Of a stretch of DNA of 59,573 nucleotides, positions 32,651 to 58,908 are shown one piece after another. The number at the start of each line of letters is the position of its first letter. Position 1 is the stretch's first letter. This DNA comes from an uncultured Pseudomonadales bacterium (GTDB lineage Bacteria > Patescibacteriota > Microgenomatia > UBA1400 > CAYXSR01). Below the pieces are notes generated by a model. It had not been told where the DNA came from, made no database searches, and saw only the letters and a program-made list of their open reading frames with translations. A program made the position numbers and the translations under genes. Location: the NCBI GenBank assembly GCA_964430265.1, contig CAYSEI010000001.1:1-59573 (forward strand). Reading direction: 5' to 3'.

Positions 32651-33145
32651 ATGAATAAAAATAAAGGAAAAAAAGGACTGACAATTATTGAACTTTTAAT
32701 ATTTGTTGGTTTAGCAGCAATAGTATTTATTTATTTTTTCGGAATATTTAAAGATTTTTATCTGGCGCGTAACCGTTCCAACCGAATGGAAGAGGTATAT
32801 AATTCCATTACAATTTCTTTAAACAATATAATTCAGGATTCTCGCTGGAGTGTCAGCTGTGATACTTCATATTCCGACCGTCTGGTTTTGGAGAGCGGTG
32901 ATCCGGTTGTAGGTGATGTGATTTATGAATTAGACGGCGGTGTTTTTAAACGCAACAATATTCCTATAACTGACGAAGAGATTGAGGTTCTTGATTTTAG
33001 TGTTGAAAAAAGAGGTGGAGCTGATGAAACTCCTCTTCTAATTATCTCCCTAGCAGTGGAGCACAAAGATAAAAACCCGCGCGTATTTTTGCAGGAAAGC
33101 ATGGTTATTTCTCTGAGGGAAGATGATGTTAAGGTGATCTTATGA
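32651..33145 (+). CDS. Type IV minor pilin-like protein
   Basis: 164 aa. KGKKG|LTIIELLIFVGLAAIV with Glu at +5. Confidence 0.7.
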   Translation: MNKNKGKKGLTIIELLIFVGLAAIVFIYFFGIFKDFYLARNRSNRMEEVYNSITISLNNIIQDSRWSVSCDTSYSDRLVLESGDPVVGDVIYELDGGVFKRNNIPITDEEIEVLDFSVEKRGGADETPLLIISLAVEHKDKNPRVFLQESMVISLREDDVKVIL

Positions 33146-34332
33146 AAATAAACAAAAAGGGCTATTCAAACCTGGTGATTGTTTTTATGCTTAGTACTTT
33201 TATGACTTTAATTCTTTTTGCGCTTTTATTGACTTCGTATCTGGATTCAAAAAGAGTAGCACAGATTGTTGATTCAAAAAAGGCCTACTACTTTGCAGAA
33301 GCGGCAATGAATGAAACAATTTTAGAGATAAGGAAAGCTCCTGCAGTTCGCCCAGATAATAGAATATATATGGTTGCTGATGCAGAAGTAACCCGGGAAA
33401 CAACAGAAGAACCGCCTGATTGTCCAATAAGAGTAGAGCTTAATTCAAAATACAAAAATGCCAAAAGAAAAATCAGTGCTTGTTTTGAAACAGGTCCTGC
33501 AATTGCAGTTCCTTTAGATATTGTTTTGGTCACGGATCATTCGGGGAGTATGTCTAATATTGGTTCACTTGAGAAAGCTAAAGTTGCAGGTAAAAGCTTT
33601 GTCCATAAGGTTCATCAAAAGGCGCAAGACGAAAATGTTAATCACAGAGTAGGGGTAGTTCTTTTTGGGGAAAGAGCAGAAAAAAAATTAAGTCTGCATC
33701 CGGTAAAAACGCCTACAGGAGAAACTTTAGTCAAAAATGCAGTTGAAGAAGACAGAAATTGTGGAGGTTCAACAAATATTGCTGATGGAATTTACATGGC
33801 AAGGGAAGAATTAAAAGATAATGGTCGAAGTGATTCTATTAAAGTAATTCTGATTTTATCAGACGGTGTACCGCAAAAAGCTTATTCTTCATGCAGTTGT
33901 CGTTCTAATGAGTGTACGTGTTCTTTTAAGAATGGATGTGATCCGATGTCTAATCCATACGAGCCACATTATCAAGGTAAAAATGAAGGTAATTGTTGTA
34001 CTGATGATGCTATAGACCAAGCAAAAAAAGCCAAAAACCAAGACGGATTTATTATATTTTCAATACATTTAGGCAAAAATTATGCTAGTACTGCTTGTAG
34101 TCCTGAAAATCTAGGGCTGCCAGAAACAAAAAAATTGGGTAGATTAACTCTTTTAAGGGTAAGTAATGAACCTCCAGATCAAACTTTGCCTGGTCCGGGT
34201 GAAGTCCGCACCTATTACAAAGAAACAGATAACGACTCAGAATTGGAAAATATCTATAATGAAGTGGCAGACAGTATAACTCTGCCTACTTTTGGGACGC
34301 TAAGTGAAGAAATTCCTGATCCAGATTTTTAA
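33142..34332 (+). CDS. PilX/GspK-like minor pilin carrying a vWA domain with a Cys-rich insert
   Basis: 396 aa. INKKG|YSNLVIVFMLSTF (no Glu+5). MIDAS-type DIVLVTDHSGSM ... GGSTNI ... ILILSDG. Insert SSCSCRSNECTCSFKNGCDP...NEGNCCTDD. Confidence 0.7.
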   Translation: MKINKKGYSNLVIVFMLSTFMTLILFALLLTSYLDSKRVAQIVDSKKAYYFAEAAMNETILEIRKAPAVRPDNRIYMVADAEVTRETTEEPPDCPIRVELNSKYKNAKRKISACFETGPAIAVPLDIVLVTDHSGSMSNIGSLEKAKVAGKSFVHKVHQKAQDENVNHRVGVVLFGERAEKKLSLHPVKTPTGETLVKNAVEEDRNCGGSTNIADGIYMAREELKDNGRSDSIKVILILSDGVPQKAYSSCSCRSNECTCSFKNGCDPMSNPYEPHYQGKNEGNCCTDDAIDQAKKAKNQDGFIIFSIHLGKNYASTACSPENLGLPETKKLGRLTLLRVSNEPPDQTLPGPGEVRTYYKETDNDSELENIYNEVADSITLPTFGTLSEEIPDPDF

Positions 34333-34892
34333 TTGATTAAAATTCTGCCTTGATTAAAAAGAACCTCCAGTTTATTATCCTTTTTTTCATTGAAGATATA
34401 AGAGTGAGGAAGAATCTCCAGGTTTGTTTCTCCCTGTTTAAGAGGAGAAAAAGTCAAGGTTGCAATTTTACCTTTACCCATAAGAGTTTCATTTGTTTCA
34501 AATATAAGCCGGTCTTTTTCCCGGATAAACTTTGGGTCGGTAAAAATATAGCCGTTTTCAGAATTTTTAAGGTTTAAATATTCTGGGTCATATTTTAAAA
34601 CAATTTTGCTTCCGCCGATAGTTTTTCCCTTGGTATTAAGGTTCAAGTCAATTTCAAAATCCGAGTTTAGATCTTGTTCTAATTGGCTTGGTTCAAGCAA
34701 TACAGTAACTGCATCTGTTTCTGGGGTAAGAGTGGAACCGCCTTGTTCTAAGCCTGGTTCTCCAAGATAAACTTCCGGCTGGCGCTCTTTTTTAAAAGAA
34801 AAATCATTTAAAATAAAAGTATTGAATATAAAAAGGGAAAAGAGAGGGAAAAGTAATAAGCCTGCAAAAGTTATTTTCTTTGATTTATCCAT
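34329..34892 (-). CDS. Membrane-anchored protein with a cohesin-like domain (tentative)
   Basis: 187 aa. Signal anchor ITFAGLLLFPLFSLFIF. FEIDLNLNTKGKTIGGSKIVLKYDPEYLNL...GKGKIATLTFSPLKQGETNLEI fits the cohesin-type pattern. Confidence 0.4.
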   Translation of the reverse strand: MDKSKKITFAGLLLFPLFSLFIFNTFILNDFSFKKERQPEVYLGEPGLEQGGSTLTPETDAVTVLLEPSQLEQDLNSDFEIDLNLNTKGKTIGGSKIVLKYDPEYLNLKNSENGYIFTDPKFIREKDRLIFETNETLMGKGKIATLTFSPLKQGETNLEILPHSYIFNEKKDNKLEVLFNQGRILIN

Positions 34893-34952: not shown

Positions 34953-34980
34953 TTGACTTTTAAATATAAGCTGGTATACT
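34953..34980 (+). promoter_or_regulatory. Sigma70-type promoter of the T-box operon
   Basis: TTGACT (34953-34958), 16-nt spacer, TATACT (34975-34980). Confidence 0.55.
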
Positions 34981-34986
34981 TTTGAA

Positions 34987-35228
34987 TAATTGAAAATTAA
35001 ATTAAATCCGCTGAAGGGAGTCGCGATCCCTGAGGAGCCTGTAAAAATACAGGACGGCAGAAGACCGTAACAACTTCAAACTCTTGTCATCAATATCTGA
35101 TAGAGAGAGTTGTCAAGTTCTTAATCTGTGAAGGTTAAGATAAATAAAGGGTGGTACCGCGTTTGGTATTAGAAAACGCCCCTTTGATTATGAACAATTA
35201 CGTTCGTAGTCAGAGGGGCGTTTTTTTT
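34987..35228 (+). promoter_or_regulatory. T-box riboswitch leader with antiterminator/terminator switch
   Basis: Canonical T-box sequence AAAGGGTGGTACCGCG (35146-35161). Antiterminator: AAAGGG / bulge UGGUACC / GCG...CGC / CCCUUU. Competing terminator: ACGCCCCUUUGA (35176-35187) pairs with UCAGAGGGGCGU (35210-35221), followed by a U8 run to 35228. Stem III-like hairpin UCUUAAUC/GGUUAAGA at 35119-35140. The Stem I region is non-canonical (three short hairpins, 35016-35068). Confidence 0.8.
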
Positions 35229-35301
35229 GCGCTTGTAGCTCAAAGGAAAGAGCAACTTCTTTCTAAGAAGTAGGCTGCGGGTTCAACTCCCGCCAAGCGC
35301 A
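35229..35301 (+). tRNA. tRNA-Arg (anticodon UCU)
   Basis: Acceptor GCGCUUG/CAAGCGC, D arm GCUC/GAGC, anticodon stem ACUUC/GAAGU, loop UU-UCU-AA, T arm GCGGG UUCAACU CCCGC, discriminator A. Begins at the first base after the T-box terminator U-run. Confidence 0.9.
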
Positions 35302-35328
35302 CAATAAAGGAAATATAAAAAATATTTA

Positions 35329-36792
35329 GTGAAAGGAAACATGTTAAAAGAAACAAACAACAGAACAATTGAATGGCTTGAAAGCCAAGAATTCAACGTT
35401 CAGAGTTCGTTAGAAAAAGTTATATTCTCTTGGAACCTAGGAAAAGAACTTGAAGAAATGTCAATGATAGAAAAAAAGAAAACAGGGTTTTTAGTTGACA
35501 CTGCATTGTCAGCCTATGGATTAAACATTGATGAAGAAACCTATCAGGAAATAGTTGATGGATTTTATCCCGAGCTTAAAGATGAGCTTAAACAGGGACT
35601 GACAGACAATCATAGTTCATTGGCAACTAAAATTAAAGGGGGCGGAGTACAGACGACATTAAAATATGCTCCGGTATTAATGGGTGAATATGAGTTGGGT
35701 GCACTAGCACCTTTAAAGGTTAAAAAAAAGGAGCAGGAAACAGTTGTGCAAATTAATAATTCAGTTATTGATTGGGAATTAGGCATTGATTTTCCTAATC
35801 CTCCAACACATGCAGTTACATATTTTGAACACAATGGAGAAACTTTTTTAGGCAAATCATATGTTGATGCATGTGTTAGCAGTGATAAAGGAGGTTTTGT
35901 TTTGGTTGATAGTAATCATTCTTGTGAACAAGGTTGTGCTTTTTGTACTTATGAAGGAGGAGATATTGAACTTATGCCTGATAATTTTGCTAAGCTAAAG
36001 AAAGTTCTTACATGCTTGGTTGAAAACACAGGTTCAATAAGTGCTTGTTTTTCTAGTGGTTCAGGTTTAGCACCAGATAGAAAAATGGTAGATATTTTTG
36101 CTCCTATGCTTAAAATTGTTGATGAGCTAAAACAAGAGTATTCTGAAGTAGATGTTGCTTTAGAGTTAGAACTGATGCCCTGGGATGAATCTGTAGACCC
36201 TGAGGTTTTAGACCTAATAGACAAATATTATCAGAAAGGATATATAAAGGCAGTAAATCTAAATATTGAAACTCCTGTTGGTATTGATAGAGAAGAGTTT
36301 ATGCAAACAGGGTTATTTGGCAAAGCCGAAATACCTGTAATGGATGAAGAAGGCAAACAGAGAAGCTATTTAGGTACATTTAAGCTTTTAAGAGAAAAAT
36401 TTCCTGAAATACAGCTAGCAGGTTTAATTGTATATGGAGTTAAACCGCAGTTCTGCAGTTGGGCAGATTACAGTAGAAAGTGCTTAGAAACTGTTGATCT
36501 TTTTGCGCAGCATAATGTTAAAATTCTATTGCAACCGGCAAAAATATCTTCTAAAACCAAAATGGCAGAATATCCAGTAGTGGACTTGTTTTGGCTAACG
36601 GGTTCAATTTTACTAGCAGACTTTATCCATCTTAAGCACCAATTGGAGAAAAAACAAAGAGTTGGGTGTGTAAACGGTTGTGATGCTTGTGATTCCTCAA
36701 GAAGCGGTTATAGTTTGCTAAAGTTTATCCAAAGAAACGGAGGGGACGAACAGGTTGAAAAACTATTAAGTCCATGGCTAGATGAATTATAA
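35329..36792 (+). CDS. Radical SAM enzyme of unassigned subfamily (~190-aa N-terminal extension, second Cys cluster near the C-terminus)
   Basis: 487 aa from GTG 35329 (alternative ATG at 35341). SNHSCEQGCAFCTY = CX3CX2C. Second CX3CX2C in VGCVNGCDACDSS near the C-terminus. Confidence 0.65.
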   Translation: MKGNMLKETNNRTIEWLESQEFNVQSSLEKVIFSWNLGKELEEMSMIEKKKTGFLVDTALSAYGLNIDEETYQEIVDGFYPELKDELKQGLTDNHSSLATKIKGGGVQTTLKYAPVLMGEYELGALAPLKVKKKEQETVVQINNSVIDWELGIDFPNPPTHAVTYFEHNGETFLGKSYVDACVSSDKGGFVLVDSNHSCEQGCAFCTYEGGDIELMPDNFAKLKKVLTCLVENTGSISACFSSGSGLAPDRKMVDIFAPMLKIVDELKQEYSEVDVALELELMPWDESVDPEVLDLIDKYYQKGYIKAVNLNIETPVGIDREEFMQTGLFGKAEIPVMDEEGKQRSYLGTFKLLREKFPEIQLAGLIVYGVKPQFCSWADYSRKCLETVDLFAQHNVKILLQPAKISSKTKMAEYPVVDLFWLTGSILLADFIHLKHQLEKKQRVGCVNGCDACDSSRSGYSLLKFIQRNGGDEQVEKLLSPWLDEL

Positions 36793-37777
36793 TTTAAGAT
36801 TATACTGGGGGGAAAATTTTACTCCTAAACCCTATAACGTTAAAAAAAGGCTTGAAAAAGCAGTTTTGGAATCCTTACAAAGAATCCATTTGTATCCAGG
36901 AATTATTCAAGAAGAAACTGTTAATTGTTTGGCAAAGAAATACTGCCTGAATAAAAACAAAATAATTACCGGGAATGGAATTGAATCGCTCGTTCATCTT
37001 ATATCCAGAACTATAGGGAAAAACAAGAAAGTAGCAATTTTGAGTCCAAGTTTTACGCTTTATAAGCAGGCTACTATTGTTTATGGAGGGAAGGTAATTA
37101 AGATACAAGTAAGGACTGGGCAGAAATTTTCTGTTGATGAACTGCTAGAAAAAGTTAAGGATAGCAAGCTTTTTTTTCTTGCATATCCGAATAATCCAAC
37201 TGGACAATATATTATTGATCCGGATAAAATAGATAAATTTTTAAACAGTTATCAGGGAATTTTAGTTGCAGATGAATGCTATTATGGTATCGGTGAAAAT
37301 ACATTGCTGGATTTAACTAAAAAGCATGCAAATTTGTTAGTTTTAAGAAGCTTTTCTAAAACTGTTGGTTTAGCAGGCATTAGATTTGGATTTGCAGTTG
37401 GAAAAGAGAAAATGATAGAAGAACTTAAGAAATATTCTAGCAATATTGAGGTTGATAAGCTAAATATTTTCAGCTGTCTTGTTGTGCAGGCAGTTCTGCC
37501 CTATACAGACAAGCTTGTGAACAATTTTAAAAATCTTAAGGAAAAGTTTGAGGGTTACTTAAAGAAATCTGGATTTGATGTAGTTGAAAGTAAAACAAGT
37601 TTCGTATTGATTCAGCTAAAAAAAGAAAACAAGGTTCAGAAAGTGATTGAAAAGTTAAAAGAAAAAGGTATTCAAGTAAAGAAAAATAAGGATTTAAATG
37701 AAAACATACTAATTTTTGCAGTTCCAAAAAAAACAGATTGGAAGTACTTTATAGCAAGTTTAAAAAAGTCGCTTTAG
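36782..37777 (+). CDS. Class I/II PLP aminotransferase, HisC/CobD-like
   Basis: 331 aa. YPNNPTGQ, VADECYYG, LRSFSKTVGLAGIRFGFAVG (SFSK PLP-lysine motif). Overlaps the radical SAM gene by 11 nt. Confidence 0.75.
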   Translation: MNYNLRLYWGENFTPKPYNVKKRLEKAVLESLQRIHLYPGIIQEETVNCLAKKYCLNKNKIITGNGIESLVHLISRTIGKNKKVAILSPSFTLYKQATIVYGGKVIKIQVRTGQKFSVDELLEKVKDSKLFFLAYPNNPTGQYIIDPDKIDKFLNSYQGILVADECYYGIGENTLLDLTKKHANLLVLRSFSKTVGLAGIRFGFAVGKEKMIEELKKYSSNIEVDKLNIFSCLVVQAVLPYTDKLVNNFKNLKEKFEGYLKKSGFDVVESKTSFVLIQLKKENKVQKVIEKLKEKGIQVKKNKDLNENILIFAVPKKTDWKYFIASLKKSL

Positions 37778-37816
37778 ATCTGGTTTTTTGTTATACTTTA
37801 TTCAGTAAAAGGCAAA

Positions 37817-39649
37817 ATGAACATAAAAAACAAAATTAAAAAATCAATATATTCTTCAGTTAAAAGCATAACCCAAGAAGTTAGTGAAGCGGAAATAAGA
37901 ATAGAGCATCCGGATAATGTTGAATATGGAGACTATTCATCAAACATTGCTTTAATTCTGGCCTCAAGATTAAAAAAGAACCCCTTGGAAATTGCCAAAG
38001 AGATTGTTTCAGAAATGAAGAAAAATAAAGAGCTGGAGGAAATTAGTGAAAAAATAGAAGCGGTCAAGCCGGGATTTATTAATATATCAATCAAAGATAA
38101 ACAGCTTATCAAAGAGCTTGAAAGAGTGATAATTGAGAAAGAAAAGTATGGAGTGAATAAAAGTGAGGATAAAAGAAAAATAATGGTGGAATATACTGAC
38201 CCAAATCCTTTTAAAGAACTGCATATTGGGCATTTATACAGTAATATTGTTGGAGAAGCTCTGGCAAGGTTATATGAATCAGCTGGCGCTGAAGTAAAAA
38301 GAGCTAATTATCAGGGAGATGTAGGAATGCATGTTGCCAAATCCATTTGGGGCTGGCAAAAGAAAATGAAAAAAGAAGATCTTAGTTTAGATGATTTGTC
38401 AGAAAAAAAACTTGAGGATAAAATCCATTTTCTGGGACAAGCATATGCAATGGGAGCAAATGCATTTAAAGAGGATAAAAAAGCAAAAAAAGAAATAAAA
38501 AAAATGAACCTGCTTGTTTATCTTGCTGCACAGGAAAATCTTGTAGAAAAAGAAGGCTGGGAGCCGGTGGTTGACTACAAAAAAATGCTGGATTCCAAAA
38601 AAGGTTATAAAAAGGTTAAAAAACTTTATCAATTAGGAAGAGAATGGAGCCTGGCATATTTTGAAAAAATCTATGAAAGATTGGGAACAGATTTTGATAT
38701 GTACTTTTTTGAAAGCTTTACCGGAGAATATGGTTTAAAAATAGTCAAAGAATATTTAAATAAAGGTGTTTTTCAGGAAAGCCAGGGTGCAATTGTTTTT
38801 CCGGGAGAGGAATACGGCTTACACACTAGGGTTTTTATTAATTCTTTGGGACTTCCTACTTATGAAGCCAAAGATTTAGGGTTGGCACACTTTAAATACC
38901 AAAAATTTGCATATGACCGCTCCTTTATTATTACCGGAAACGAGGTTGACGAGTATTTTAAGGTGGTTTTAAGGGCTCTAAAAGAGGTCTATCCAGAACT
39001 GGAAAAAAAGACCATGCACATTTCCCACGGCATGGTCGGGCTCCCTACTGGACCAATGTCTTCCAGGACCGGAAACGTAATAACCGGTGAATGGCTAATG
39101 GACCAAGCAAAAAAAGAAGCAGTTAAAAAAATTAAAGAATCAAAAAAAATTGATAGTGAAGCTGAAGAAGCAGAAAATATTGCAGAAATGATTGCAATTG
39201 GTTCAGTAAAATATGCGCTTTTAAAAAGCGGGATAGGCAAAGATGTGGAATTTGACTTTGACAAATCAATTTCTTTGCAAGGTAATTCCGGACCTTACCT
39301 GCAATACACTTATGCTAGGTGTAAATCTGTATTAAGGAAAGCTAATGATTTTCTGCTGGATGATAAAAATATAGAGGAGTACCAAGCAAACAAAGAAGAA
39401 GAAGAGATTCTGCATTGGCTGTACCGGTTTGAAGAAGCAGTTTTGGATGCCAAAGAGGAATTAGCCCCAAACATTGTCTGCAATTTCCTTTTTGATCTGG
39501 CACAGAAGTATAATTCGTTTTATAACAAGCACAGAATTTTAGTTGAGGGTGAGGAAAAAGAATTCAGAATACTTTTAACTAAAGCAGTGGCGCATATAAT
39601 CAAAAACGGACTGCAGATTTTGGGTATCCTTGTACCCGAAAAAATGTAA
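37817..39649 (+). CDS. argS: Arginyl-tRNA synthetase
   Basis: 610 aa. YTDPNPFKELHIGHLYSNIVGEAL (HIGH), class I architecture, C-terminal anticodon-binding helices. Confidence 0.9.
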   Translation: MNIKNKIKKSIYSSVKSITQEVSEAEIRIEHPDNVEYGDYSSNIALILASRLKKNPLEIAKEIVSEMKKNKELEEISEKIEAVKPGFINISIKDKQLIKELERVIIEKEKYGVNKSEDKRKIMVEYTDPNPFKELHIGHLYSNIVGEALARLYESAGAEVKRANYQGDVGMHVAKSIWGWQKKMKKEDLSLDDLSEKKLEDKIHFLGQAYAMGANAFKEDKKAKKEIKKMNLLVYLAAQENLVEKEGWEPVVDYKKMLDSKKGYKKVKKLYQLGREWSLAYFEKIYERLGTDFDMYFFESFTGEYGLKIVKEYLNKGVFQESQGAIVFPGEEYGLHTRVFINSLGLPTYEAKDLGLAHFKYQKFAYDRSFIITGNEVDEYFKVVLRALKEVYPELEKKTMHISHGMVGLPTGPMSSRTGNVITGEWLMDQAKKEAVKKIKESKKIDSEAEEAENIAEMIAIGSVKYALLKSGIGKDVEFDFDKSISLQGNSGPYLQYTYARCKSVLRKANDFLLDDKNIEEYQANKEEEEILHWLYRFEEAVLDAKEELAPNIVCNFLFDLAQKYNSFYNKHRILVEGEEKEFRILLTKAVAHIIKNGLQILGILVPEKM

Positions 39650-41638: not shown

Positions 41639-42907
41639 ATGAATTTTAAAGTGAACAAAACAGTTTTGGAAAACGGTTTAAAAGTTTTGACTTTGCCTAT
41701 GCAGTCAATTCCTTCAATAACTTCATTGGTTATGGTTAAGGCCGGTTCGAGGTGGGAAGCAGAAAAAAGGGCTGGGATCTCTCACTTTTTAGAACATATG
41801 GTTTTTAAGGGAACAGAAAAATATCCTTCACATATTGCTTTGGCAAGTGCGGTTGATTCAATTGGTGCGGAATTTAATGCTTTTACCAGCAAGGAATACA
41901 CTGGTTTTTATGTCAGGGGTGCAAGTGATCATTTGGATTTGTCCTTGGATGTTTTGTCAGAAATGATTTGGCGGCCTCTTATACCAAGTAAAGATATTAA
42001 AAAAGAAAAGCCGGTTATTTTTGAAGAAATAAATATGCGCAATGATCACCCGATGCTGAAAGCAGAGGAAGAGTTTGAGTGCTTAATGTATGGTGAAAAA
42101 AGCCTGGGAAGGCCAATAATTGGCACTAAAGATACTGTTGCTGCTATTTCAAGAGATGATTTTGAAAAATACAGAAATAACTGGTATTACCCGGAAAACA
42201 TTGTTCTAGGGTTGGTTGGCGATGAAAGAATAATAGATAGAGAAGATACTTTGGAATTGGTGAAAAAATATTTTGCCATTAAAAAAGAAAAAGGTTTAGA
42301 GCAAAAAAACACTTTTACAATTAAAAAAGACAAAAAAAGGCTTTTAAATAAAAAGACCCAGCAAGCGCATTTCTGCCTAGGAGTTCCGGCTTTGGAAAGA
42401 GGTCACAAGGACCGCTATATTCTCAGCCTTTTAACAGTAATACTGGGAAGCACTTTTAGTTCACGCTTGTTTTTGGAAGTCAGGGAAAAGCGGGGGTTGG
42501 CATATTATGTTAAAACCTCACCGGAAACATATTTAAAAACCGGATATATAATGACCCAGGCGGGGACTGAACCCAAAAACTTAAAAGAGGCAGTTAAAGT
42601 AATAAAAAATGAATATGAAAAAATAAAAAAAGCAGATGCTAGTTTAAAAAAGGATTTAAAATGGGCAAAAGAATATTTAAAAGGCAAGCTTGCTTTAAAG
42701 CTTGAAGAACCAAAATCTGTTGCCTCCTTTTATATTGAAGACCTTTTACTGGAAAAAAGACTTAGGGATGTGGATGAAATCATTTCTAAAATAGAGGCAG
42801 TAGAAGCAGAAGATATTGCTGCTTTAGCTGAAAAGATTTTTAAAAAAGACCAATTAAGATTATCGGTAATTGGTCCATATAAAAACTTGGACAATATTAA
42901 GATATAA
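41639..42907 (+). CDS. M16 (pitrilysin/insulinase) family zinc peptidase
   Basis: 422 aa. GISHFLEHMVFKGT (inverted HxxEH zinc motif). Confidence 0.85.
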   Translation: MNFKVNKTVLENGLKVLTLPMQSIPSITSLVMVKAGSRWEAEKRAGISHFLEHMVFKGTEKYPSHIALASAVDSIGAEFNAFTSKEYTGFYVRGASDHLDLSLDVLSEMIWRPLIPSKDIKKEKPVIFEEINMRNDHPMLKAEEEFECLMYGEKSLGRPIIGTKDTVAAISRDDFEKYRNNWYYPENIVLGLVGDERIIDREDTLELVKKYFAIKKEKGLEQKNTFTIKKDKKRLLNKKTQQAHFCLGVPALERGHKDRYILSLLTVILGSTFSSRLFLEVREKRGLAYYVKTSPETYLKTGYIMTQAGTEPKNLKEAVKVIKNEYEKIKKADASLKKDLKWAKEYLKGKLALKLEEPKSVASFYIEDLLLEKRLRDVDEIISKIEAVEAEDIAALAEKIFKKDQLRLSVIGPYKNLDNIKI

Positions 42908-43530: not shown

Positions 43531-46500
43531 ATGGAAGATCAGCTTGAAAAAAATATTAAGCCCATTGAAAAAGAATCTTTTCCAACGGAACCTTCTGAAA
43601 GTTTGGATAAAAAAGTCAGTACGCGTGTTAAAGAACAAGAATCCCTTCCTGTATATTCTGTTTCAGAGAGTGAGAAAACAGCATCAAATTTGGATATCAA
43701 CAGTAGAATGGAGAAAAAACTATGGAGGATGGGTGAAGTTTTAGCACAAGAGCATCAATTCAGCCAAATGCTTGTAAAAGTAGGAAGAAAATTAGAACAG
43801 CCAGAAGATTGTCAGATTGTAGCCTTGGATTCAGCTTCTGCAGAAGCTTTTTATAGTAATCGTGACAACTTGGTTGTTTTTTCCCGCGGTTTGGCAAAAA
43901 AATTAATTAGCCAGGGAGTTGAATTAAAAGAAGACCACATTGCAGCAATTATCAGTCATGAATTGGAACATGAAGAAACAAACAAACGTTTAAATCCCGG
44001 TTTTGCATTTGATTTGAGCTACAAGAAAAAAATGCGGATGCAGAGTGAAGAAATGCGTGCGGATACAGAAGGAATGGAGAATATGGCAAGAGCCGGATAC
44101 AATCCCGAAGCAATGATAGACGTATATAAAGCAATCGGTTTAACTTCCGGACGTTATGGAACTAGTCATCCGGAAACAATTGACAGAATCCGTCATTTGG
44201 AAACCCGTTTGACTGATGATGAACATCCAATTCCAAGTGTTGGCAAAGAAATGACAGATGTTGATGAGGATTTAATAAAATACTTTACAGATGAAACACA
44301 GGTTTATCAAGAAAGCGAGAGGTTATGTTCTTTATCTGCAAATCAGCTTCAGGAAGAAATATTAGATACAGAATTCCAGGAAGAATTTTGGGCGCTTTAT
44401 CCAATGGAAAGACATGCACGCCGTGTTGAATACGGTAAAGCACTGGCAGGAGGAAATAGAGACTTACAAAGGTTGGTAAAAAAACAACTTCTTTTTCGCT
44501 TGCTTTCAACACGGAGTAGCGGTCATGGAGGCAGGGAAACCTGCCGTCTATTTATTGACGGCGAATTACAGCCGGAAATGGAAGGTGAGTTAATAAAAGA
44601 ATTGAGAGAAGAATCAGCCTTTATTACCCGTAGTGTGAAGAATAGCCACTTAGCATATATTTTTGATATGGAAACCGGATCCTCCCATTTTTTGAGAGCA
44701 ATGGATTACAGGGGAAATTTGCCAGAGGCGGATGTAGAGGATCCGGTAAAAGCAAGTTTTCAAGAAAGAATTGAAAAAGCAGAAGCTGCTTTGGACGAAA
44801 TTCTTTCTCGGCAGTTTGAAATTCTGGAAAAAAAACTTGCTGATGGAGAATTACCTGACTATTACAAGGCCCATCTGGAAAGGATAAAACAGGAATTAAA
44901 TAGCACAGCAGTAATTCCCTCAGCAGATGTAATGGCAAGTGCATTTGATTTTCTTGACAGGAGGGTAGTTGAAGATAATCTTAGAAAAGGAAATGAATTA
45001 AGACGGAAAAGGGGTCTCCGTTTGCAAGGACCTAATAAGAGCGACACAGTTGATTTTAATGACTTGGCTGAACGACAGCATGTTTTTAATGCTGCTTGCT
45101 TATCAACTGCAATATTTATGCTTGAGGAAATACCAGAAAACCAAATAACTTGGGCGCATTTAAATGAAGTTTTAGAAAATAGTACTGAATTGAGTGAAAT
45201 TGAAATAGAGCTTATTGCAGAGTATATATTTCATCAGAATGAGCAGGAATGGGTCAAATATTTGGGTTCTGTTGACCGTAAATATTTACCTGATTTGCAA
45301 AAAAAATTAAGAGCGGTTAAAGACGAAGGAGAAATAAGGCTTTCACCGAGAAAGTTGGGGGCGGGTCAAAGAATTTCCCTTTCTAAGTGCGATAGGATAG
45401 ATTCAATAAAAAATGAATTGCATTATAAATACGGTTACTTGCCCCATCCCTTTTCAGATGAAAGAGGAAAAAGAAACGCGTTAAGAGTACTAAGAGCAAT
45501 GCCGGCCTGGGAAATGTATAAGCGCTCTTGTCCTTTAAAAAATCAGGATGTGTTTAACAATCACTATTGGGACGGAGTGGGAATTTCAATGGATGCAGAC
45601 GAATTTGAATTTATATACTATACTTTGCAAAGAGATGGTAGTGATGTTTCCAATCTTAAAGTAAAGTATCAAATATGGTCTGGTGTCTTAAGAAAGGGAA
45701 TAGACAGGCTTAAACAAGGAGAACCCCTTTCCGAAGGCGAATTACAAATTATTAGTAGTATAAATAATTTTACCACTAATGGATTGCGTGATTACGGAAT
45801 TCCTTATCGGATTAGTTTTGAAGAAATGGATTTACTTTATGAAAATATTCCCTGGGTTGAAGGAGAAAGAGCTGTAAAGGTATTGGATTGGATTGAACAA
45901 GAATTTCGTTACGAACCAAAGGTTAAAGAACTTACTCCTGAACAGCAAAAACGCTTTGAAAAAATGCTTTTTGAGATATATGAAAATTATCCTGAATTGG
46001 AAGAAAGTTTTATAGAAGGAAGATATGTTCCTTATAGGGAACATAGGGCAAAAGACATGATCGCTGGATTTTTACTTAATCTTAAATTGCATGAAATCGG
46101 CTTTCCCAGGGAGTATCCGGAGGTGGAAATATCCCGGGAGGATGAGGAAGAAGTAATTAATGTTTTAAACGAGCTGGGGGAAAAAGGAATCAGAATATCC
46201 AACTTAGCTTGTATAAATTCTCCTGTACAGCTATTTTTTGAACAAGGAAGTGAGGAAAACTTACTCAGATTGGCTAATGATTTTGCTGATAAATCTGTTA
46301 TAGAAAATGAAAAACTTTCTTTTTCCGAAGCATTGAGGCTGGCAAGTGTTACTCCGGAAAGAAATGAAAGGTATAAGAAAAAAGACCTGCTTGCAGGTTT
46401 TTCTATTTATCCGGAAACAATTGACGAAATTTTTAAAGATAGGGGTTATGCAGAAGGAATTGATTGGGTGTTGAATAATTTTCATTCGTCTTCAATCAGG

Positions 46501-49002
46501 GATTTGCTTCTGGCTGGTTTAGCAGAGCAAATGACCGAGAGTCAAAAAGAAATAGTGGGTTTTGTTTTGCCGCACAGTTTTTCTGCAGAAGCAGTTAATG
46601 CCGGAAGGGGGAAAAACGCTTTTGACTATCAGGGTTATAATTCTGCCAAAAGATTAAATTCTAAAGGGAAGTATCAAGAGTTAGTTGATTTTTTTCAAGG
46701 GAAAGGAAGGTTGAAAGAAATTTTTCCTGATATTTTGGCTAGGAGGTATTCTTATGGGAGCCAAGCAAAGCCCGTAGATTCCGAAAGTGAACTTCCTAGG
46801 TTCATAAGTTCAGATTTTGAAGCAAGAAGAAGAGCTATTAAAGGTAATCCTGCTCAAAGATATTTTGGCAAAGAATTACTAAAAAAAGAAGATCGATTAT
46901 TTGATTTAGGAGTTGATCTAGATAAAAGAATAGGATTATTAACAGAAACAGCTCCGCACCATTCGCCTGTTCGGGATACTTATGTGGAATTTATGCTTAA
47001 AGACAGTTTTTCAGAAGCGGAAACAGCTGAAAAGAGGTATGAAGCAGCGTGTATATTAATGCCGCTTTTTTCCGAGGGATGTCAGTTTAAAGATCCGTAT
47101 AACCTGCAAATGTTGAGGGATGAGATAAGTTTGACAGCAGATTTTTACGCTGATCCGGAGGCTGCATTGCAAGTAGTTTTAAATTATCTTCCGGAGTCTG
47201 GTCTGGCAAGAAACTATTTTCTAGACCAAATTGAAGAAAGATCCTCTTTGACTCCCGATCAAATAGAAAAAATTATTAGTTTGCGTATTACAGAAGAAGG
47301 TCAGAGCAAAGGAGAAAAGGGGTACGAGGCTGGTCCGGGTCCTTTTGTAATGAATCTGCTTGCCGAGCAAAATCGGGAAGAAAAATGTAAAACTGTTTTA
47401 TGGTTGTTACAAGCTTCGGAAAAAAAACCTTTAGCTGTTGAAAAAACGGAACAAAATCAGGACGGCAGTTTGGACAGTTTTAAAAATATGTTTACCCAGT
47501 TAACTCCGCCTGAAAGGGAAGTTTTGCTTCGTAGGCTCTTTTTAGGGGCAGAGGGAATATTAGACTTGGAAGCAGTTTCTGATGAGTATTTAGGAGAAGC
47601 AGAGAAACTTAGGGATAATTTTTTAAAGTCTTTATCAGATCATTTTATTTCTGGAGAGACACAAAGCGAACAAGTTTTTCGTTCGATATTTAAAACCGTT
47701 TTTCAAAAGGCGGAACCGGCCAAAGCCGCTCATATGATGAATAATATTATTAATATTTCTTTAGAGCATATCCGGACTGGAGAGAGTTTTACTACTGCAG
47801 AATTAGTAGCCAGTTTCTTAAGTCAGATGGGGGTGGTTGGTAAAAAAGTTGCACAGTCTTTGTCCGAAATGGAATGGGTGCCAGAAAATTACAAAAAAGA
47901 ATTACATCGCAGTCAGGAAGAGGCAGAGAGCCTGCCTAAAAGAGCCTTGTATGTTTTTGCAGAAGCAGAGGGGTTATTAGAAGAAGATGCGGATATGCAG
48001 ATTGTTAGTTTTGACAAACTTTTGGGTGCGGCTTCTAATAAGCAGGCCTGTTTGTTGACGGTTAAGGTTGATACTCAAGAAAAAGCAGAAACATTGGGTG
48101 TAGAAGTAGGGCAGACAACCCAAGTTGTTGGTAAGTTTAAACGTCCTTCTGCACAAAAAGAAACTAATATTGAACATGACTTAGAGTTATTGACTGAGGT
48201 GGTAGAAACAATCCGTTCGTATGGGCAAGATATTAGTCTTCCACCGGGTTTTTCCGATCAGATAGGGATGGCAGTCAAGCAAGAATTGGACTTTAAAAGG
48301 GAAGAAAAATTTGCGCAAAAACTCCGTAATGATATTCAAAGGAGAAACAAGTATAAAGGCTATACAGTTGGGATTCCGCAGATTTTGTTTTCCTCTCAGG
48401 ATTTAGTTTTGGAAACCCGCGCATCAGGCATATCTGTACGTGAATTTATTGATCAAAAGATTTTGGGTTTGGGATCTGTTAATGCAGTTATTTTAAGAGA
48501 ATTTCTTGCAGAAATTTTATTGAGTGGGAATATTCAAGCAGATGGGCATCCGGGAAATATTTTTGTTAATGCGGAAAATAAAAAAATTACAATGATTGAT
48601 TTGGGTATGCATACTGGTCTGGAAAGTGAAAAGATAATTTATGCTAGAGAAATACTGATAGGCATAGCTTTAGGTAAAAAAAGTATTGTTCACAGGGCCT
48701 TAAGAAAATTTGATTGGGATATACCTAAGCAAGCTTTAGATTTTAAACCAGTAAGCTTTTTAGAAAATTCAAGGCTTTTACTTGCTGCCAGTAAGCAAGC
48801 ACAAACACCGCCGCCGCATGATTTAGGAATGGTAATCTTTGCTCTATCAAAACTATCACCTTATTTTAAAGGAGTTTCGCCGAAAGAGATTTTTACGATT
48901 ATTAAAGAATCAATACCGCCGTCTCAATGGCGCTTGCATGCGGAAATAATTGGAATTGAAGAAGGAGTTTCTGGATTAGAAAAAATAAGGAATAAAATAT
49001 AA
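43531..49002 (+). CDS. 1823-aa multidomain protein: N-terminal M48-type zinc peptidase domain, ~1300-aa helical middle, C-terminal ABC1/UbiB-like atypical kinase domain
   Basis: IISHELEHEETN (HExxH), EEMRADTEGMENMARAGYNPEAM, TSHPETIDRIRHLE (M48-type pattern). C-terminus: LLGAASNKQACLL, KFKRPSAQKETNIEHDLELL, QELDFKREEKFAQKL, IQADGHPGNIFV...ITMIDLGM (ABC1 pattern aaAS..QV / ELDF..E / HaDpHPGN / DFG). No signal peptide or TM noticed. Confidence 0.7.
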   Translation: MEDQLEKNIKPIEKESFPTEPSESLDKKVSTRVKEQESLPVYSVSESEKTASNLDINSRMEKKLWRMGEVLAQEHQFSQMLVKVGRKLEQPEDCQIVALDSASAEAFYSNRDNLVVFSRGLAKKLISQGVELKEDHIAAIISHELEHEETNKRLNPGFAFDLSYKKKMRMQSEEMRADTEGMENMARAGYNPEAMIDVYKAIGLTSGRYGTSHPETIDRIRHLETRLTDDEHPIPSVGKEMTDVDEDLIKYFTDETQVYQESERLCSLSANQLQEEILDTEFQEEFWALYPMERHARRVEYGKALAGGNRDLQRLVKKQLLFRLLSTRSSGHGGRETCRLFIDGELQPEMEGELIKELREESAFITRSVKNSHLAYIFDMETGSSHFLRAMDYRGNLPEADVEDPVKASFQERIEKAEAALDEILSRQFEILEKKLADGELPDYYKAHLERIKQELNSTAVIPSADVMASAFDFLDRRVVEDNLRKGNELRRKRGLRLQGPNKSDTVDFNDLAERQHVFNAACLSTAIFMLEEIPENQITWAHLNEVLENSTELSEIEIELIAEYIFHQNEQEWVKYLGSVDRKYLPDLQKKLRAVKDEGEIRLSPRKLGAGQRISLSKCDRIDSIKNELHYKYGYLPHPFSDERGKRNALRVLRAMPAWEMYKRSCPLKNQDVFNNHYWDGVGISMDADEFEFIYYTLQRDGSDVSNLKVKYQIWSGVLRKGIDRLKQGEPLSEGELQIISSINNFTTNGLRDYGIPYRISFEEMDLLYENIPWVEGERAVKVLDWIEQEFRYEPKVKELTPEQQKRFEKMLFEIYENYPELEESFIEGRYVPYREHRAKDMIAGFLLNLKLHEIGFPREYPEVEISREDEEEVINVLNELGEKGIRISNLACINSPVQLFFEQGSEENLLRLANDFADKSVIENEKLSFSEALRLASVTPERNERYKKKDLLAGFSIYPETIDEIFKDRGYAEGIDWVLNNFHSSSIRDLLLAGLAEQMTESQKEIVGFVLPHSFSAEAVNAGRGKNAFDYQGYNSAKRLNSKGKYQELVDFFQGKGRLKEIFPDILARRYSYGSQAKPVDSESELPRFISSDFEARRRAIKGNPAQRYFGKELLKKEDRLFDLGVDLDKRIGLLTETAPHHSPVRDTYVEFMLKDSFSEAETAEKRYEAACILMPLFSEGCQFKDPYNLQMLRDEISLTADFYADPEAALQVVLNYLPESGLARNYFLDQIEERSSLTPDQIEKIISLRITEEGQSKGEKGYEAGPGPFVMNLLAEQNREEKCKTVLWLLQASEKKPLAVEKTEQNQDGSLDSFKNMFTQLTPPEREVLLRRLFLGAEGILDLEAVSDEYLGEAEKLRDNFLKSLSDHFISGETQSEQVFRSIFKTVFQKAEPAKAAHMMNNIINISLEHIRTGESFTTAELVASFLSQMGVVGKKVAQSLSEMEWVPENYKKELHRSQEEAESLPKRALYVFAEAEGLLEEDADMQIVSFDKLLGAASNKQACLLTVKVDTQEKAETLGVEVGQTTQVVGKFKRPSAQKETNIEHDLELLTEVVETIRSYGQDISLPPGFSDQIGMAVKQELDFKREEKFAQKLRNDIQRRNKYKGYTVGIPQILFSSQDLVLETRASGISVREFIDQKILGLGSVNAVILREFLAEILLSGNIQADGHPGNIFVNAENKKITMIDLGMHTGLESEKIIYAREILIGIALGKKSIVHRALRKFDWDIPKQALDFKPVSFLENSRLLLAASKQAQTPPPHDLGMVIFALSKLSPYFKGVSPKEIFTIIKESIPPSQWRLHAEIIGIEEGVSGLEKIRNKI

Positions 49003-53090: not shown

Positions 53091-53110
53091 GATAAATAAA
53101 GATAATTTTG

Positions 53111-53183
53111 TACTCCTACCAGGAATTGAACCTGGATCTGTCGCTTAGGAGGCGACTGCTCTATCCGTTTGAGCTATAGGAGC
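53111..53183 (-). tRNA. tRNA-Arg (anticodon CCU)
   Basis: Reverse complement: GCUCCUA UA GCUC AAACGGAUA GAGC A GUCGC CU-CCU-AA GCGAC AGAU CCAGG UUCAAUU CCUGG UAGGAGU A. Confidence 0.9.
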
Positions 53184-58752: not shown

Positions 58753-58908
58753 TTTTTCCCTTTCTTAAAAACAAAAAAGCACTCCGAGGAGTGCTAAATA
58801 TATTAATTTAATTCACTTTTCTCCTCGGTAGGATTTATGTTTGCTTATTTACAAACACCTACTTTCTTAGGTTGAGTATATTTTACATCTCTGCTATATT
58901 AAAATCAA
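58753..58908 (-). promoter_or_regulatory. rplJ promoter plus leader with terminator/antiterminator alternative (L10-leader-like attenuator)
   Basis: Minus strand: TTGATT (58908-58903), 17-nt spacer, TAAAAT (58885-58880). Leader hairpin AGCACUC-CUCG-GAGUGCU followed by UUUUUUGUUUUU (58795-58766), immediately before SD AAGGGA and the ATG. Upstream CCGAGGAG (within ...AAUCCUACCGAGGAGAAAAG...) is complementary to CUCCUCGG of that hairpin. Confidence 0.5.

Follow-up and report, generated by a model that had tools for sequence, protein, structure and literature searches.

Among the described systems, those closest to the locus considered here are the transcriptional T-boxes of the Firmicutes (Rfam family RF00230), including the arginine-specific leaders of argS. 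The locus is an operon in a 59,573-nucleotide stretch of DNA from an uncultured bacterium (positions 1 to 59,573 of contig CAYSEI010000001.1, assembly GCA_964430265.1; "the window" below denotes this whole stretch), in which a T-box leader is followed by a tRNA-Arg gene, a gene for a protein with a radical S-adenosylmethionine (radical-SAM) fold, an aminotransferase gene and argS, all on the + strand. The leader has in common with the Firmicutes T-boxes the T-box sequence, a UGGN bulge, the switch between two conformers, a kink-turn (K-turn), Stem II, the Stem IIA/B pseudoknot and Stem III, and it likewise has a probable arginine specifier ending in C and argS in the operon that it would control. 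Unlike them, it has a Stem I of only 5 base pairs (bp) and a 7-nucleotide (nt) loop, with neither a specifier internal loop nor an elbow-binding platform; the first gene behind it is a tRNA gene; the host is of the Patescibacteria type; and its score lies below the Rfam gathering threshold. In our view the best overall explanation, to which we assign a probability of roughly 0.55, is that a single operon is transcribed from the promoter at 34953, that it is gated by a terminating arginine T-box with a short Stem I, and that the enzyme pair encoded in it supplies arginine.

It is also useful to compare the leader with the ultrashort ileS T-boxes of Mycobacterium tuberculosis, in which a short Stem I without elbow contact is compensated by Stem II and a pseudoknot between Stem IIA/B and its linker, elements that are present here as well (PMC7583486, PMC11297988). 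However, the actinobacterial ileS T-boxes are translational and sequester the ribosome-binding site, whereas the leaders of the window and of two related loci (L007 and L023; handles of this form denote loci with homologues of the operon's genes) end in a strong terminator with a U-tract. Stem I elements of intermediate or "ultrashort" size that lack the elbow motif are a feature of translational T-boxes (PMC7583486), and the combination of an ultrashort Stem I with a terminator has been described as disfavoured for transcriptional ones.

The leader and its switch

The leader promoter is of the sigma-70 type (TTGACT-16-(TG)TATACT, 34953-34980), matches at 10/12 positions and carries a TG extension, in agreement with the preliminary description of this DNA, which had placed it there; near-consensus promoters also lie 5′ of the L007 T-box (by eye) and of the L008 leader. 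In the window, whose G+C content is 36%, the 227 nt after the promoter fold with a z-score of −9.1 against shuffled sequences. With sensitive filters, cmscan aligns RF00230 to 35002-35186 at 52.3 bits (gathering score, 93 bits), with E = 1e-10 in a 441-nt scan and 1.3e-8 across the whole 59.5-kb window, where the leader is the sole T-box match. The earlier expectation of an RF00230 match is thus borne out by the E value in the window, though not by the score, which stays under the gathering threshold; the T-box is statistically real, though atypical. The T-box sequence itself, AAAGGGTGGTACCGCG at 35146-35161, was recognized from the outset; it is read directly and is aligned by cmscan with posterior probabilities near 1. 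The leader carries the conserved T-box sequence AGGGUGGNACCGCG, and the core pattern GGTGGNACCRCG is matched once in the window, where 0.16 matches would be expected. The synthetase genes of this genome are not generally under T-box control, since no T-box was detected upstream of leuS in the same window (853 amino acids (aa), 21945-24506), even at sensitive settings.

Two conformers of the 3′ part of the leader can be written as explicit base pairs. The antiterminator (35146-35185, −11.0 kcal/mol from an explicit pairing table) has 12 pairs, divided between helix A1 (35146-51/35180-85) and helix A2 (35159-64/35174-79), with a 7-nt bulge, UGGUACC, between the two; within the bulge, UGGU (35152-55) would be the partner of a tRNA's ACCA end. 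The intrinsic terminator (35175-35228; hairpin at 35175-35222, U8 at 35221-35228), located with a terminator scan, is a long stem with a folding energy of −44.4 kcal/mol. Because the 3′ half of the antiterminator doubles as the 5′ arm of the terminator, the conformers are mutually exclusive. Both of them, and the U8, are as first described, although the terminator stem has at least 20 pairs and not the 12–13 bp originally given to it. Overall, the initial call of an arginine-specific T-box with promoter, antiterminator and terminator is supported.

The 5′ part of the leader had been read as three short hairpins of an atypical Stem I. The hairpins exist, but the cmscan alignment assigns them to Stem I, to Stem II and to Stem IIA/B. 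Stem I (35008-35037), which is also a hairpin in the minimum free energy (MFE) fold, is ultrashort: a K-turn/GA motif (CCGCUGA ... UGAGGAG) is followed by a helix of 5 bp (AGGGA/UCCCU) and a loop of 7 nt, GUCGCGA. In the alignment 76 Stem I positions of the model are reduced to 7 nt while the K-turn positions are still matched, and both the specifier internal loop and the distal elbow-binding platform of interdigitated T-loops are absent. The hairpin has the size of an anticodon arm, with a U 5′ of CGC and a purine 3′ of it. On the direct reading and on comparison with orthologous T-boxes, this CGC (35022-35024, followed by the purine G35025) is the probable arginine specifier; it sits in the terminal 7-nt loop and not in an internal specifier loop, and GCG is a formal alternative reading.

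It is informative to examine this loop beside those of the orthologous T-boxes. The four specifiers (window, L004, L007 and L023) are all CGN, and none is AGR. L004 has a full-length Stem I with a canonical S-turn context, AGUA ... GAA-CGC-G (4567-4573), in which CGC+G occupies 4570-4573. In L007 the hairpin has 6 bp and its loop is CGCA, 82 model positions being reduced to 14 nt, and its CGC+A lies at 5714-5717. In L023, where the element reads AGGAG-[AAA GGCAUACGCC CUCGAG]-CUCCU, the TBDB positional rule gives CGA+G (4736-4739). Specifiers ending in C are preferred by arginine T-boxes (TBDB, PMC7778990). Judged from these sequences, the specifier of the window is most likely CGC rather than AGA.

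Stem II (35038-35053, CCUGUA-AAAA-UACAGG, a hairpin of the MFE fold) and Stem IIA/B (35054-35077) both align to their counterparts in RF00230. The latter consists of the hairpin ACGG-CAGAAGA-CCGU (35054-35068) and a linker, aligned to GACGG..CCGUUA of the model, and the GAAG of its loop (35060-63) can pair with CUUC of the linker (35074-77), as in the loop–linker pseudoknot known from the M. tuberculosis ileS T-box (PMC11297988). The equivalent loop of L007, AAAGUAA, contains no AGA and pairs as AAGUA:UACUU, so that the pseudoknot covaries. The preliminary description had drawn attention to two exposed triplet-bearing loops, CGC (35022-35024) and CAGAAGA (35058-35064); both are there, but the second, being the IIA/B pseudoknot loop, is most probably not the specifier, and AGA, GAA and AAG were rejected as readings within it. 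Stem III is a hairpin of the MFE fold just 5′ of the T-box sequence (35119-35141). In the Stem III region of L007, also 5′ of the T-box sequence, there is a terminator-like CCTCCG-CAACCAA-CGGAGG followed by ATTTTTT (5842-5867), which could be a second stop signal or merely part of Stem III.

The tRNA gene and the proposed mechanism

The tRNA gene behind the terminator (35229-35302; ARAGORN, and 71 bits with the Rfam tRNA model) encodes a tRNA-Arg with the anticodon UCU, the discriminator A and no encoded CCA. As first reported, its base 1 (35229) directly follows the last U of the U8, and its discriminator matches the UGGU of the bulge. The UCU anticodon is mismatched with CGC at two of three positions (1 and 3), which makes it most likely that the sensed tRNA is a CGN reader and not the downstream tRNA. 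From sequence, then, the switch probably senses a CGN-reading tRNA-Arg (ICG, GCG or UCG) rather than the tRNA it precedes, and control would be cross-isoacceptor and not that of a tRNA inducing its own gene.

One can imagine the following sequence of events. An uncharged CGN-reading tRNA-Arg (anticodon ICG/ACG, GCG or UCG) would pair with CGC in the Stem I loop while its free ACCA end paired with UGGU of the antiterminator bulge; the antiterminator would then replace the terminator, and RNA polymerase would read on. Read-through would first yield tRNA-Arg(UCU), released by an RNase P cut exactly at the end of the U-tract (35228/35229) and made only in this way, and the mRNA for the radical-SAM protein, the aminotransferase and arginyl-tRNA synthetase (ArgRS) would rise along with it. 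The charging state of the CGN reader would thereby govern how much of the AGR reader and of the synthetase is supplied; that is, the supply of the main decoder and of its synthetase would be coupled to the charging of a minor isoacceptor. With additional uncharged tRNA present, the charged fraction would fall further until ArgRS had made up for it; this would amount to a built-in amplifier. As for the enzymes, the radical enzyme would form a 2-oxo acid (5-guanidino-2-oxopentanoate or a close relative) from an acquired precursor, and the aminotransferase would turn this 2-oxo acid into L-arginine for ArgRS.

Parts of this scheme have parallels. In the thrU-tyrU-glyT-thrT-tufB operon of Escherichia coli, tRNA genes are co-transcribed with a protein gene, and tRNA is likewise cut out of the 5′ portion of a transcript running on into the mRNA of a translation factor; that operon has no riboswitch gate, whereas in the window the tRNA gene has a T-box terminator on one side and the coding genes on the other. 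The glyS T-box of Staphylococcus aureus (PMC4574755) likewise serves the isoacceptor family of one synthetase with one specifier, although its output is the synthetase only, whereas here the output would include the gene of another isoacceptor. For T-boxes 5′ of tRNA genes, no precedent was found in the searchable literature.

A rival explanation, which we consider unlikely, is that the adjacency of T-box and tRNA gene is incidental: the tRNA would be constitutive, through a weak internal promoter or basal read-through, and the T-box would regulate the protein genes only. A separate tRNA promoter, which the preliminary description had set down as incompatible with its own proposal, did not emerge, as the promoter scan between 34980 and 35229 gave no promoter-like site of at least 9/12. 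Under this threshold there is a weak pair, TTGGTA-17-GATTAT (8/12), at 35163-35191 in the discriminator region of the T-box. Were it active, tRNA transcripts independent of the terminator would arise, as a transcript from there lacks the 5′ arm of the terminator, although 8/12 matches are common in AT-rich DNA. The need of the major arginine codon for this tRNA also speaks for constitutive expression, as does the ability of the cluster to manage without it, for the tRNA gene is absent from L007, L023 and the loci with leader peptides. Against this stand the start of the tRNA at the very base after the U-tract and the recurrence of the arrangement in L004, at 45% identity the core family's most distant member, where T-box, terminator, tRNA-Arg(UCU), tRNA-Arg(UCG) and the gene cluster follow one another with no + strand promoter between.

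The cluster and its leaders in relatives

The gene order on which the preliminary description had placed weight is kept in relatives of the window. Wherever a lineage shows both the radical-SAM and the aminotransferase gene, the two adjoin or overlap each other, and argS comes after the pair in 8 of the 9 lineages with a visible downstream gene. Its identity is confirmed by Pfam in the window, L001, L004, L008, L019, L023 and L024, and in L017 a cut, unannotated 91-aa open reading frame (ORF) 25 nt past the aminotransferase gene is probably argS. An arginine-linked leader is present at all loci whose upstream DNA can be read; it is a T-box in four cases and an ORF with an Arg-Arg pair in five, four of the latter with a terminator. 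The pair had at first been said to have no obvious role in a synthetase operon; this can now be sharpened in that it always stands under an arginine-linked leader, even where argS is missing (L007).

The individual arrangements differ in their additions. Behind a T-box with the specifier CGC come, in the window, tRNA-Arg(UCU), the radical-SAM gene, the aminotransferase gene and argS; in L004, tRNA-Arg(UCU), tRNA-Arg(UCG), a methyltransferase gene, the pair, a small ORF and a gene for a fusion of a B3_4 domain with ArgRS; and in L007, the pair followed by rpoB, with no argS. The CGA T-box of L023 precedes a 75-aa ORF, the pair and argS. An Arg-Arg leader ORF with a terminator precedes a D-2-hydroxyacid dehydrogenase gene, which overlaps the radical-SAM gene, and then the aminotransferase gene and argS in L001, and it precedes the pair and argS in L008/L013; with two terminators, such an ORF precedes the radical-SAM gene on the short contigs of L011 and L014. 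In L019 a leader ORF ending LRRYRQSA, with no clear terminator, is followed by the pair, a GIY-YIG gene and argS. For L017 (the pair, then the cut ORF) and L024 (a partial radical-SAM gene, the aminotransferase gene and argS) the comparison covers the genes only. L001 and L008 also have a divergent gene for an EamA-family transporter. The remotest radical-SAM relatives, L021 (5135-7626) and L022 (448-2952), are without the aminotransferase gene and argS and lie beside a divergently transcribed gene for a TrmB-family regulator; L007 also has a TrmB gene nearby (2066-2839).

Sensing of arginine through the Arg codons of a leader ORF is known from Salmonella speF (PMC6386406), and the leaders of L001, L008, L011 and L014 likewise have a short 5′ ORF, clustered Arg codons and then an intrinsic terminator. 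Unlike speF and other leader-peptide attenuators, they have only two adjacent Arg codons and a weakly supported competing antiterminator, belong to genomes of the candidate phyla radiation (CPR) type and stand in the place of a T-box. The ORF and its terminator or terminators (L008:5543-5668, L001:4843-4972, L011:3-180 and L014:646-825) lie where other loci have the T-box. The ORF is conserved, encodes 23–24 aa (for example MLEKLSATNSSLRRLFGEGSISMR, with conserved ...NSS(L/S)RR(L/T)...) and occupies the very 5′ end of the transcript, starting ~7–11 nt past the TATAAT box, so that the 5′ untranslated region is nearly leaderless. The Arg-Arg pair is invariant and is encoded by AGG-AGA or AGG-CGA, the second codon varying synonymously. 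Behind the ORF come GC-rich hairpins with U-runs, one in L001 and L008 and two in tandem in L011 and L014, whose sequences differ while the pairing is kept. When nascent prefixes are folded with a ribosome at the first Arg codon, a G-run within the ORF pairs with 3–5 nt of the terminator 5′ arm in 4/4 lineages. We therefore regard the leader ORF with its terminator as a candidate attenuator. That these small upstream ORFs might encode, as substrates for the radical-SAM enzyme, precursors of ribosomally synthesized and post-translationally modified peptides, or scaffold peptides, was rejected in view of their replacement by a T-box elsewhere, their position at the 5′ end and the terminators after them.

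Some features of these leaders are peculiar to single loci. The start of the L008 leader ORF, MLEKLS (5543-5560), nearly repeats that of the radical-SAM gene, MLEKIS (5806-5823), and this likeness in sequence suggests that the leader ORF arose by duplication of the 5′ end of the gene; between terminator and gene in the same locus is a region of ~120 nt with long hairpins (5669-5790). The L019 upstream region has no Rfam match. Its ORF of 34 codons (1185-1289, ending LRRYRQSA*) is followed by GC-rich hairpins without a U-run, which may point to translational control, and the small GIY-YIG ORF of this locus lies at 4055-4309, between the aminotransferase gene and argS.

In a rough neighbour-joining tree, in which the placement of L011 is unreliable, the T-box loci are the outgroup (L023), the base of the core group (L004) and the pair formed by the window and L007, and the leader-peptide loci form a derived clade. 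This branching points to the T-box as the ancestral state, with the leader peptide as a later replacement. The literature searched held nothing on T-boxes in Patescibacteria/CPR or on clusters of genes for a radical-SAM protein, an aminotransferase and ArgRS.

The enzyme pair and its possible roles

The first protein of the operon (35341-36792) belongs to an undescribed family. Homologues align from the ATG at 35341, giving 483 aa; the 487-aa ORF described earlier, which starts at the GTG at 35329 and has CX3CX2C twice, is present with CEQGCAFC and CVNGCDAC. C195-x3-C199-x2-C202, C443-x3-C447-x2-C450, C178 and C236 are invariant in 10 homologues, and the second triad, with C178 and C236, probably forms an auxiliary cluster, to judge by this conservation. 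No Pfam or NCBIfam family matches the protein: PF04055 reaches 14 bits (cut-off 29.5, E 0.06), with distant relatives at up to 27 bits, and a sequence search of the PDB returned only queuine lyase, at E 0.04. The AlphaFold2 model (predicted template-modelling score 0.83, with low predicted local confidence in the cluster loop itself) is that of a radical-SAM barrel, for which the top Foldseek matches in the PDB are lipoyl synthase (4u0p; probability 1.00, E 7e-5, TM by target 0.50), human LIAS, HydE, RlmN and TsrM; a structure search of BFVD gave only generic radical-SAM matches. The word "unassigned" in the preliminary description was thus apt, as Foldseek confirms the fold and no curated family covers the protein. 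A KamA-type aminomutase was also considered and rejected, with no family match in support. The family is very rare: 10 clusters at 45–100% identity, one of them labelled Patescibacteria, were found among 5.8 billion proteins, and 21 further remote representatives among 1.84 billion; scans of genomes and metagenomes added few loci.

The second protein (36782-37777; PF00155, 123.4 bits) is a fold-type-I aminotransferase dependent on pyridoxal phosphate (PLP), of the HisC/CobD branch, with the SFSK lysine motif and the 11-nt overlap with the radical-SAM ORF that had been noted from the sequence. Its best PDB relatives are HisC (E 1e-26), but it is not a genuine HisC, as it scores 188.7 bits with TIGR01141 against an equivalog cut-off of 276.55 and falls in a private subclade. 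Its homologues form three tiers: a private one of 7 clusters at 41–49% identity, a second at 33–38%, and ordinary HisC at 33% or less. The private tier mirrors the radical-SAM family, and on these sequence relationships we take the aminotransferase to be the dedicated partner of the radical-SAM protein. The gene that follows, at 37817-39649, is argS, as had been stated: it encodes an arginine--tRNA ligase of 610 aa (TIGR00456, 388.5 bits against a cut-off of 261.65) with matches to three Pfam domains (N-terminal, catalytic and DALR) and to ArgRS of the PDB at up to E 1e-55.

Several known enzymes resemble the pair in part. In butirosin biosynthesis, a radical-SAM dehydrogenase (BtrN) is followed by an aminotransferase (BtrS). 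The radical-SAM protein shares with the LipA/HydE/BioB group and with BtrN the CX3CX2C motif on a partial TIM barrel and extra invariant cysteines, and, as with BtrN/BtrS, an aminotransferase is its obligate neighbour. However, compared with LipA/HydE/BioB, TM-scores are only ~0.5 and identity is 13–16%, the 170-aa N-terminal domain is unique, and the second motif is a C-terminal CX3CX2C; unlike in either comparison, the context is that of arginine, not of an aminoglycoside or a cofactor.

On the preferred reading, the pair is a member of the Arg-tRNA regulon independently of argS. The strongest clue to its function is regulatory: in L007 an arginine T-box controls it alone, without argS. The cognate amino acid's synthetases, biosynthetic genes and transporters are the normal content of T-box regulons (PMC2494555), and the D-2-hydroxyacid dehydrogenase of L001 hints at a 2-oxo-acid intermediate feeding the aminotransferase; together these favour an arginine-supply module, which on that point alone we hold at somewhat less than even odds and prefer to analogue synthesis and to an activity directed at tRNA. 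The more specific proposal would be a new two-enzyme route, in CPR/Patescibacteria, that leads from a scavenged precursor to arginine or to charged tRNA-Arg and that uncharged tRNA-Arg would turn on through a minimal transcriptional T-box that also sets the level of another isoacceptor; this we regard as rather doubtful. The broader claim of an unusual, conserved, arginine-linked operon is supported.

A number of observations weigh against the T-box-gated, arginine-supplying operon that we prefer, and it is appropriate to consider them together. An Rfam scan at the gathering score (93 bits) leaves RF00230 unreported. The elbow-binding motif of Stem I is essential in the transcriptional T-boxes studied so far (PMC7583486), so that the function of a Stem I of 5 bp and 7 nt is here only predicted. 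Under the TBDB positional rule an open 7-nt loop would read GCG, an alanine codon, and the CGC reading requires either that G35020·A35026 close the loop or that the specifier be presented terminally, as in an anticodon loop. No CGN-reading tRNA-Arg is encoded in the window, the only other tRNA-Arg found there by ARAGORN being one with the anticodon CCU (53110-53183). AGA is the commonest arginine codon of the window (41%; AGA and AGG together, 67%), and placing its decoder behind a terminator of −44 kcal/mol seems risky unless read-through is high or there is a second copy. In the leader-peptide loci, MFE folding kept the terminator in every ribosome state and revealed no antiterminator, and the antiterminator proposed there on the basis of the prefix folds is weakly supported. 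The N-terminal domain (~170 aa) of the radical-SAM protein, modelled alone (with one of five AlphaFold2 models confident), has no Foldseek match, the best E being 1. Finally, we know of no arginine route that includes a radical-SAM enzyme.

It is less probable still than an incidental tRNA gene that the product of the pair is an analogue of arginine or another non-canonical amino acid, such as an antimetabolite, with ArgRS serving fidelity or self-protection. A methyltransferase and an aminotransferase (MrsA/MrsB) make 3-methylarginine, a parallel to L004 with its added SAM-dependent methyltransferase; the divergent EamA transporters of L001 and L008 would also suit such a product. The 856-aa ArgRS of L004 (8718-11288) has an N-terminal B3_4 domain (E 6.5e-20), of the editing-domain family found in PheRS-beta and in CtdA, the deacylase of canavanyl-tRNAArg (PMC10018355), and tRNA deacylases mark clusters for non-canonical amino acids (PMC13149037). 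From its domains, the fusion suggests cis-editing of an arginine look-alike. However, were uncharged tRNA-Arg the inducer, a toxin would be produced at the very time at which charging fails; each of the three additions (B3_4 fusion, methyltransferase and transporter) is lineage-specific and lies outside the core; and in L007 the pair is under T-box control without any ArgRS.

A slightly weaker case can be made that the pair acts on tRNA-Arg or Arg-tRNA itself, through modification of the anticodon loop or a tRNA-dependent amino-acid conversion, and we think this improbable. The SepCysS and SelA systems, in which fold-type-I PLP enzymes have aminoacyl-tRNA as their substrate, provide a general precedent; the order of tRNA, radical-SAM, aminotransferase and argS genes would fit, and RlmN and tRNA-modifying radical-SAM enzymes of phages and giant viruses are among the weaker fold matches. 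The best fold matches, however, are LipA and HydE, not tRNA enzymes, no RNA-binding domain is recognized and the N-terminal domain is without a match, most loci have no tRNA gene, and the aminotransferase falls in the HisC-like branch that acts on small molecules. Least likely of all is the reading with which the preliminary description began, that the T-box senses the downstream tRNA-Arg(UCU) through AGA of the CAGAAGA loop, so that this tRNA when uncharged would induce its own gene and ArgRS: AGA is exposed in the hairpin loop (35058-35064) and is the main arginine codon, the discriminator A matches UGGU, a partial version is conceivable in L004, whose encoded tRNA-Arg(UCG) could match CGC at the cost of one wobble mismatch, and both GCC and UCC anticodons are taken by the glyS T-box of S. 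aureus (PMC4574755), but the loop aligns to IIA/B with GAAG pairing to CUUC and with the compensating AAGUA:UACUU, free of AGA, in L007, all four orthologous T-boxes hold a CGN codon in Stem I, and UCU mismatches CGC twice, so that this claim has to be set aside.

The T-box itself is a known kind of element. What appear to be new are the combination of a minimal Stem I with a terminator, the tRNA gene as first regulated product, which is conserved in L004, and the cargo, a hitherto undescribed radical-SAM family that in CPR-type bacteria stands, together with its private aminotransferase, under Arg-tRNA sensors of two different kinds. If the preferred reading is right, the first product regulated by this T-box would be a tRNA, and the T-box, while of the terminator type, would do without the elbow platform thought to be needed for fast co-transcriptional capture of tRNA. 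The range of Stem I within one orthologous family, from full length in L004 to 5 bp and 7 nt in the window, offers a natural series for the minimal RNA. T-box and leader-peptide regulons are reliable pointers to function, and here two independent kinds of Arg-tRNA sensor converge on the same radical-SAM family and its aminotransferase. To our knowledge, CPR-type organisms are generally thought unable to make amino acids; the operon thus offers a testable starting point for finding new arginine chemistry in the candidate phyla radiation, or a new analogue of this amino acid.

A few other features of the window are worth recording. In the region 33142-34892, a gene for a VWA-domain protein (+) is found just 5′ of the operon, and a gene for a cohesin-domain protein (−) converges on its 3′ end with a 4-nt overlap; the cohesin-domain gene is divergent from the T-box promoter, the position in which L001 and L008 have the EamA-family transporter. 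Further along are a protein of the M16 peptidase pair type (41639-42907), with sub-threshold matches to YfmF and YfmH, which are linked to the 5-aminopentanol modification of elongation factor P (EF-P), and an 1823-aa ORF (43531-49002) with a peptidase M48 signature near the N-terminus and an ABC1 atypical-kinase domain near the C-terminus. In L001 and L008, EF-P genes are found within a few kb of the cluster, and the proximity of the YfmF/YfmH-like protein and of EF-P is probably coincidental. A ribosomal protein L10 leader (RF00557, 61 bits, above the gathering score) is present at 58764-58889 on the − strand.

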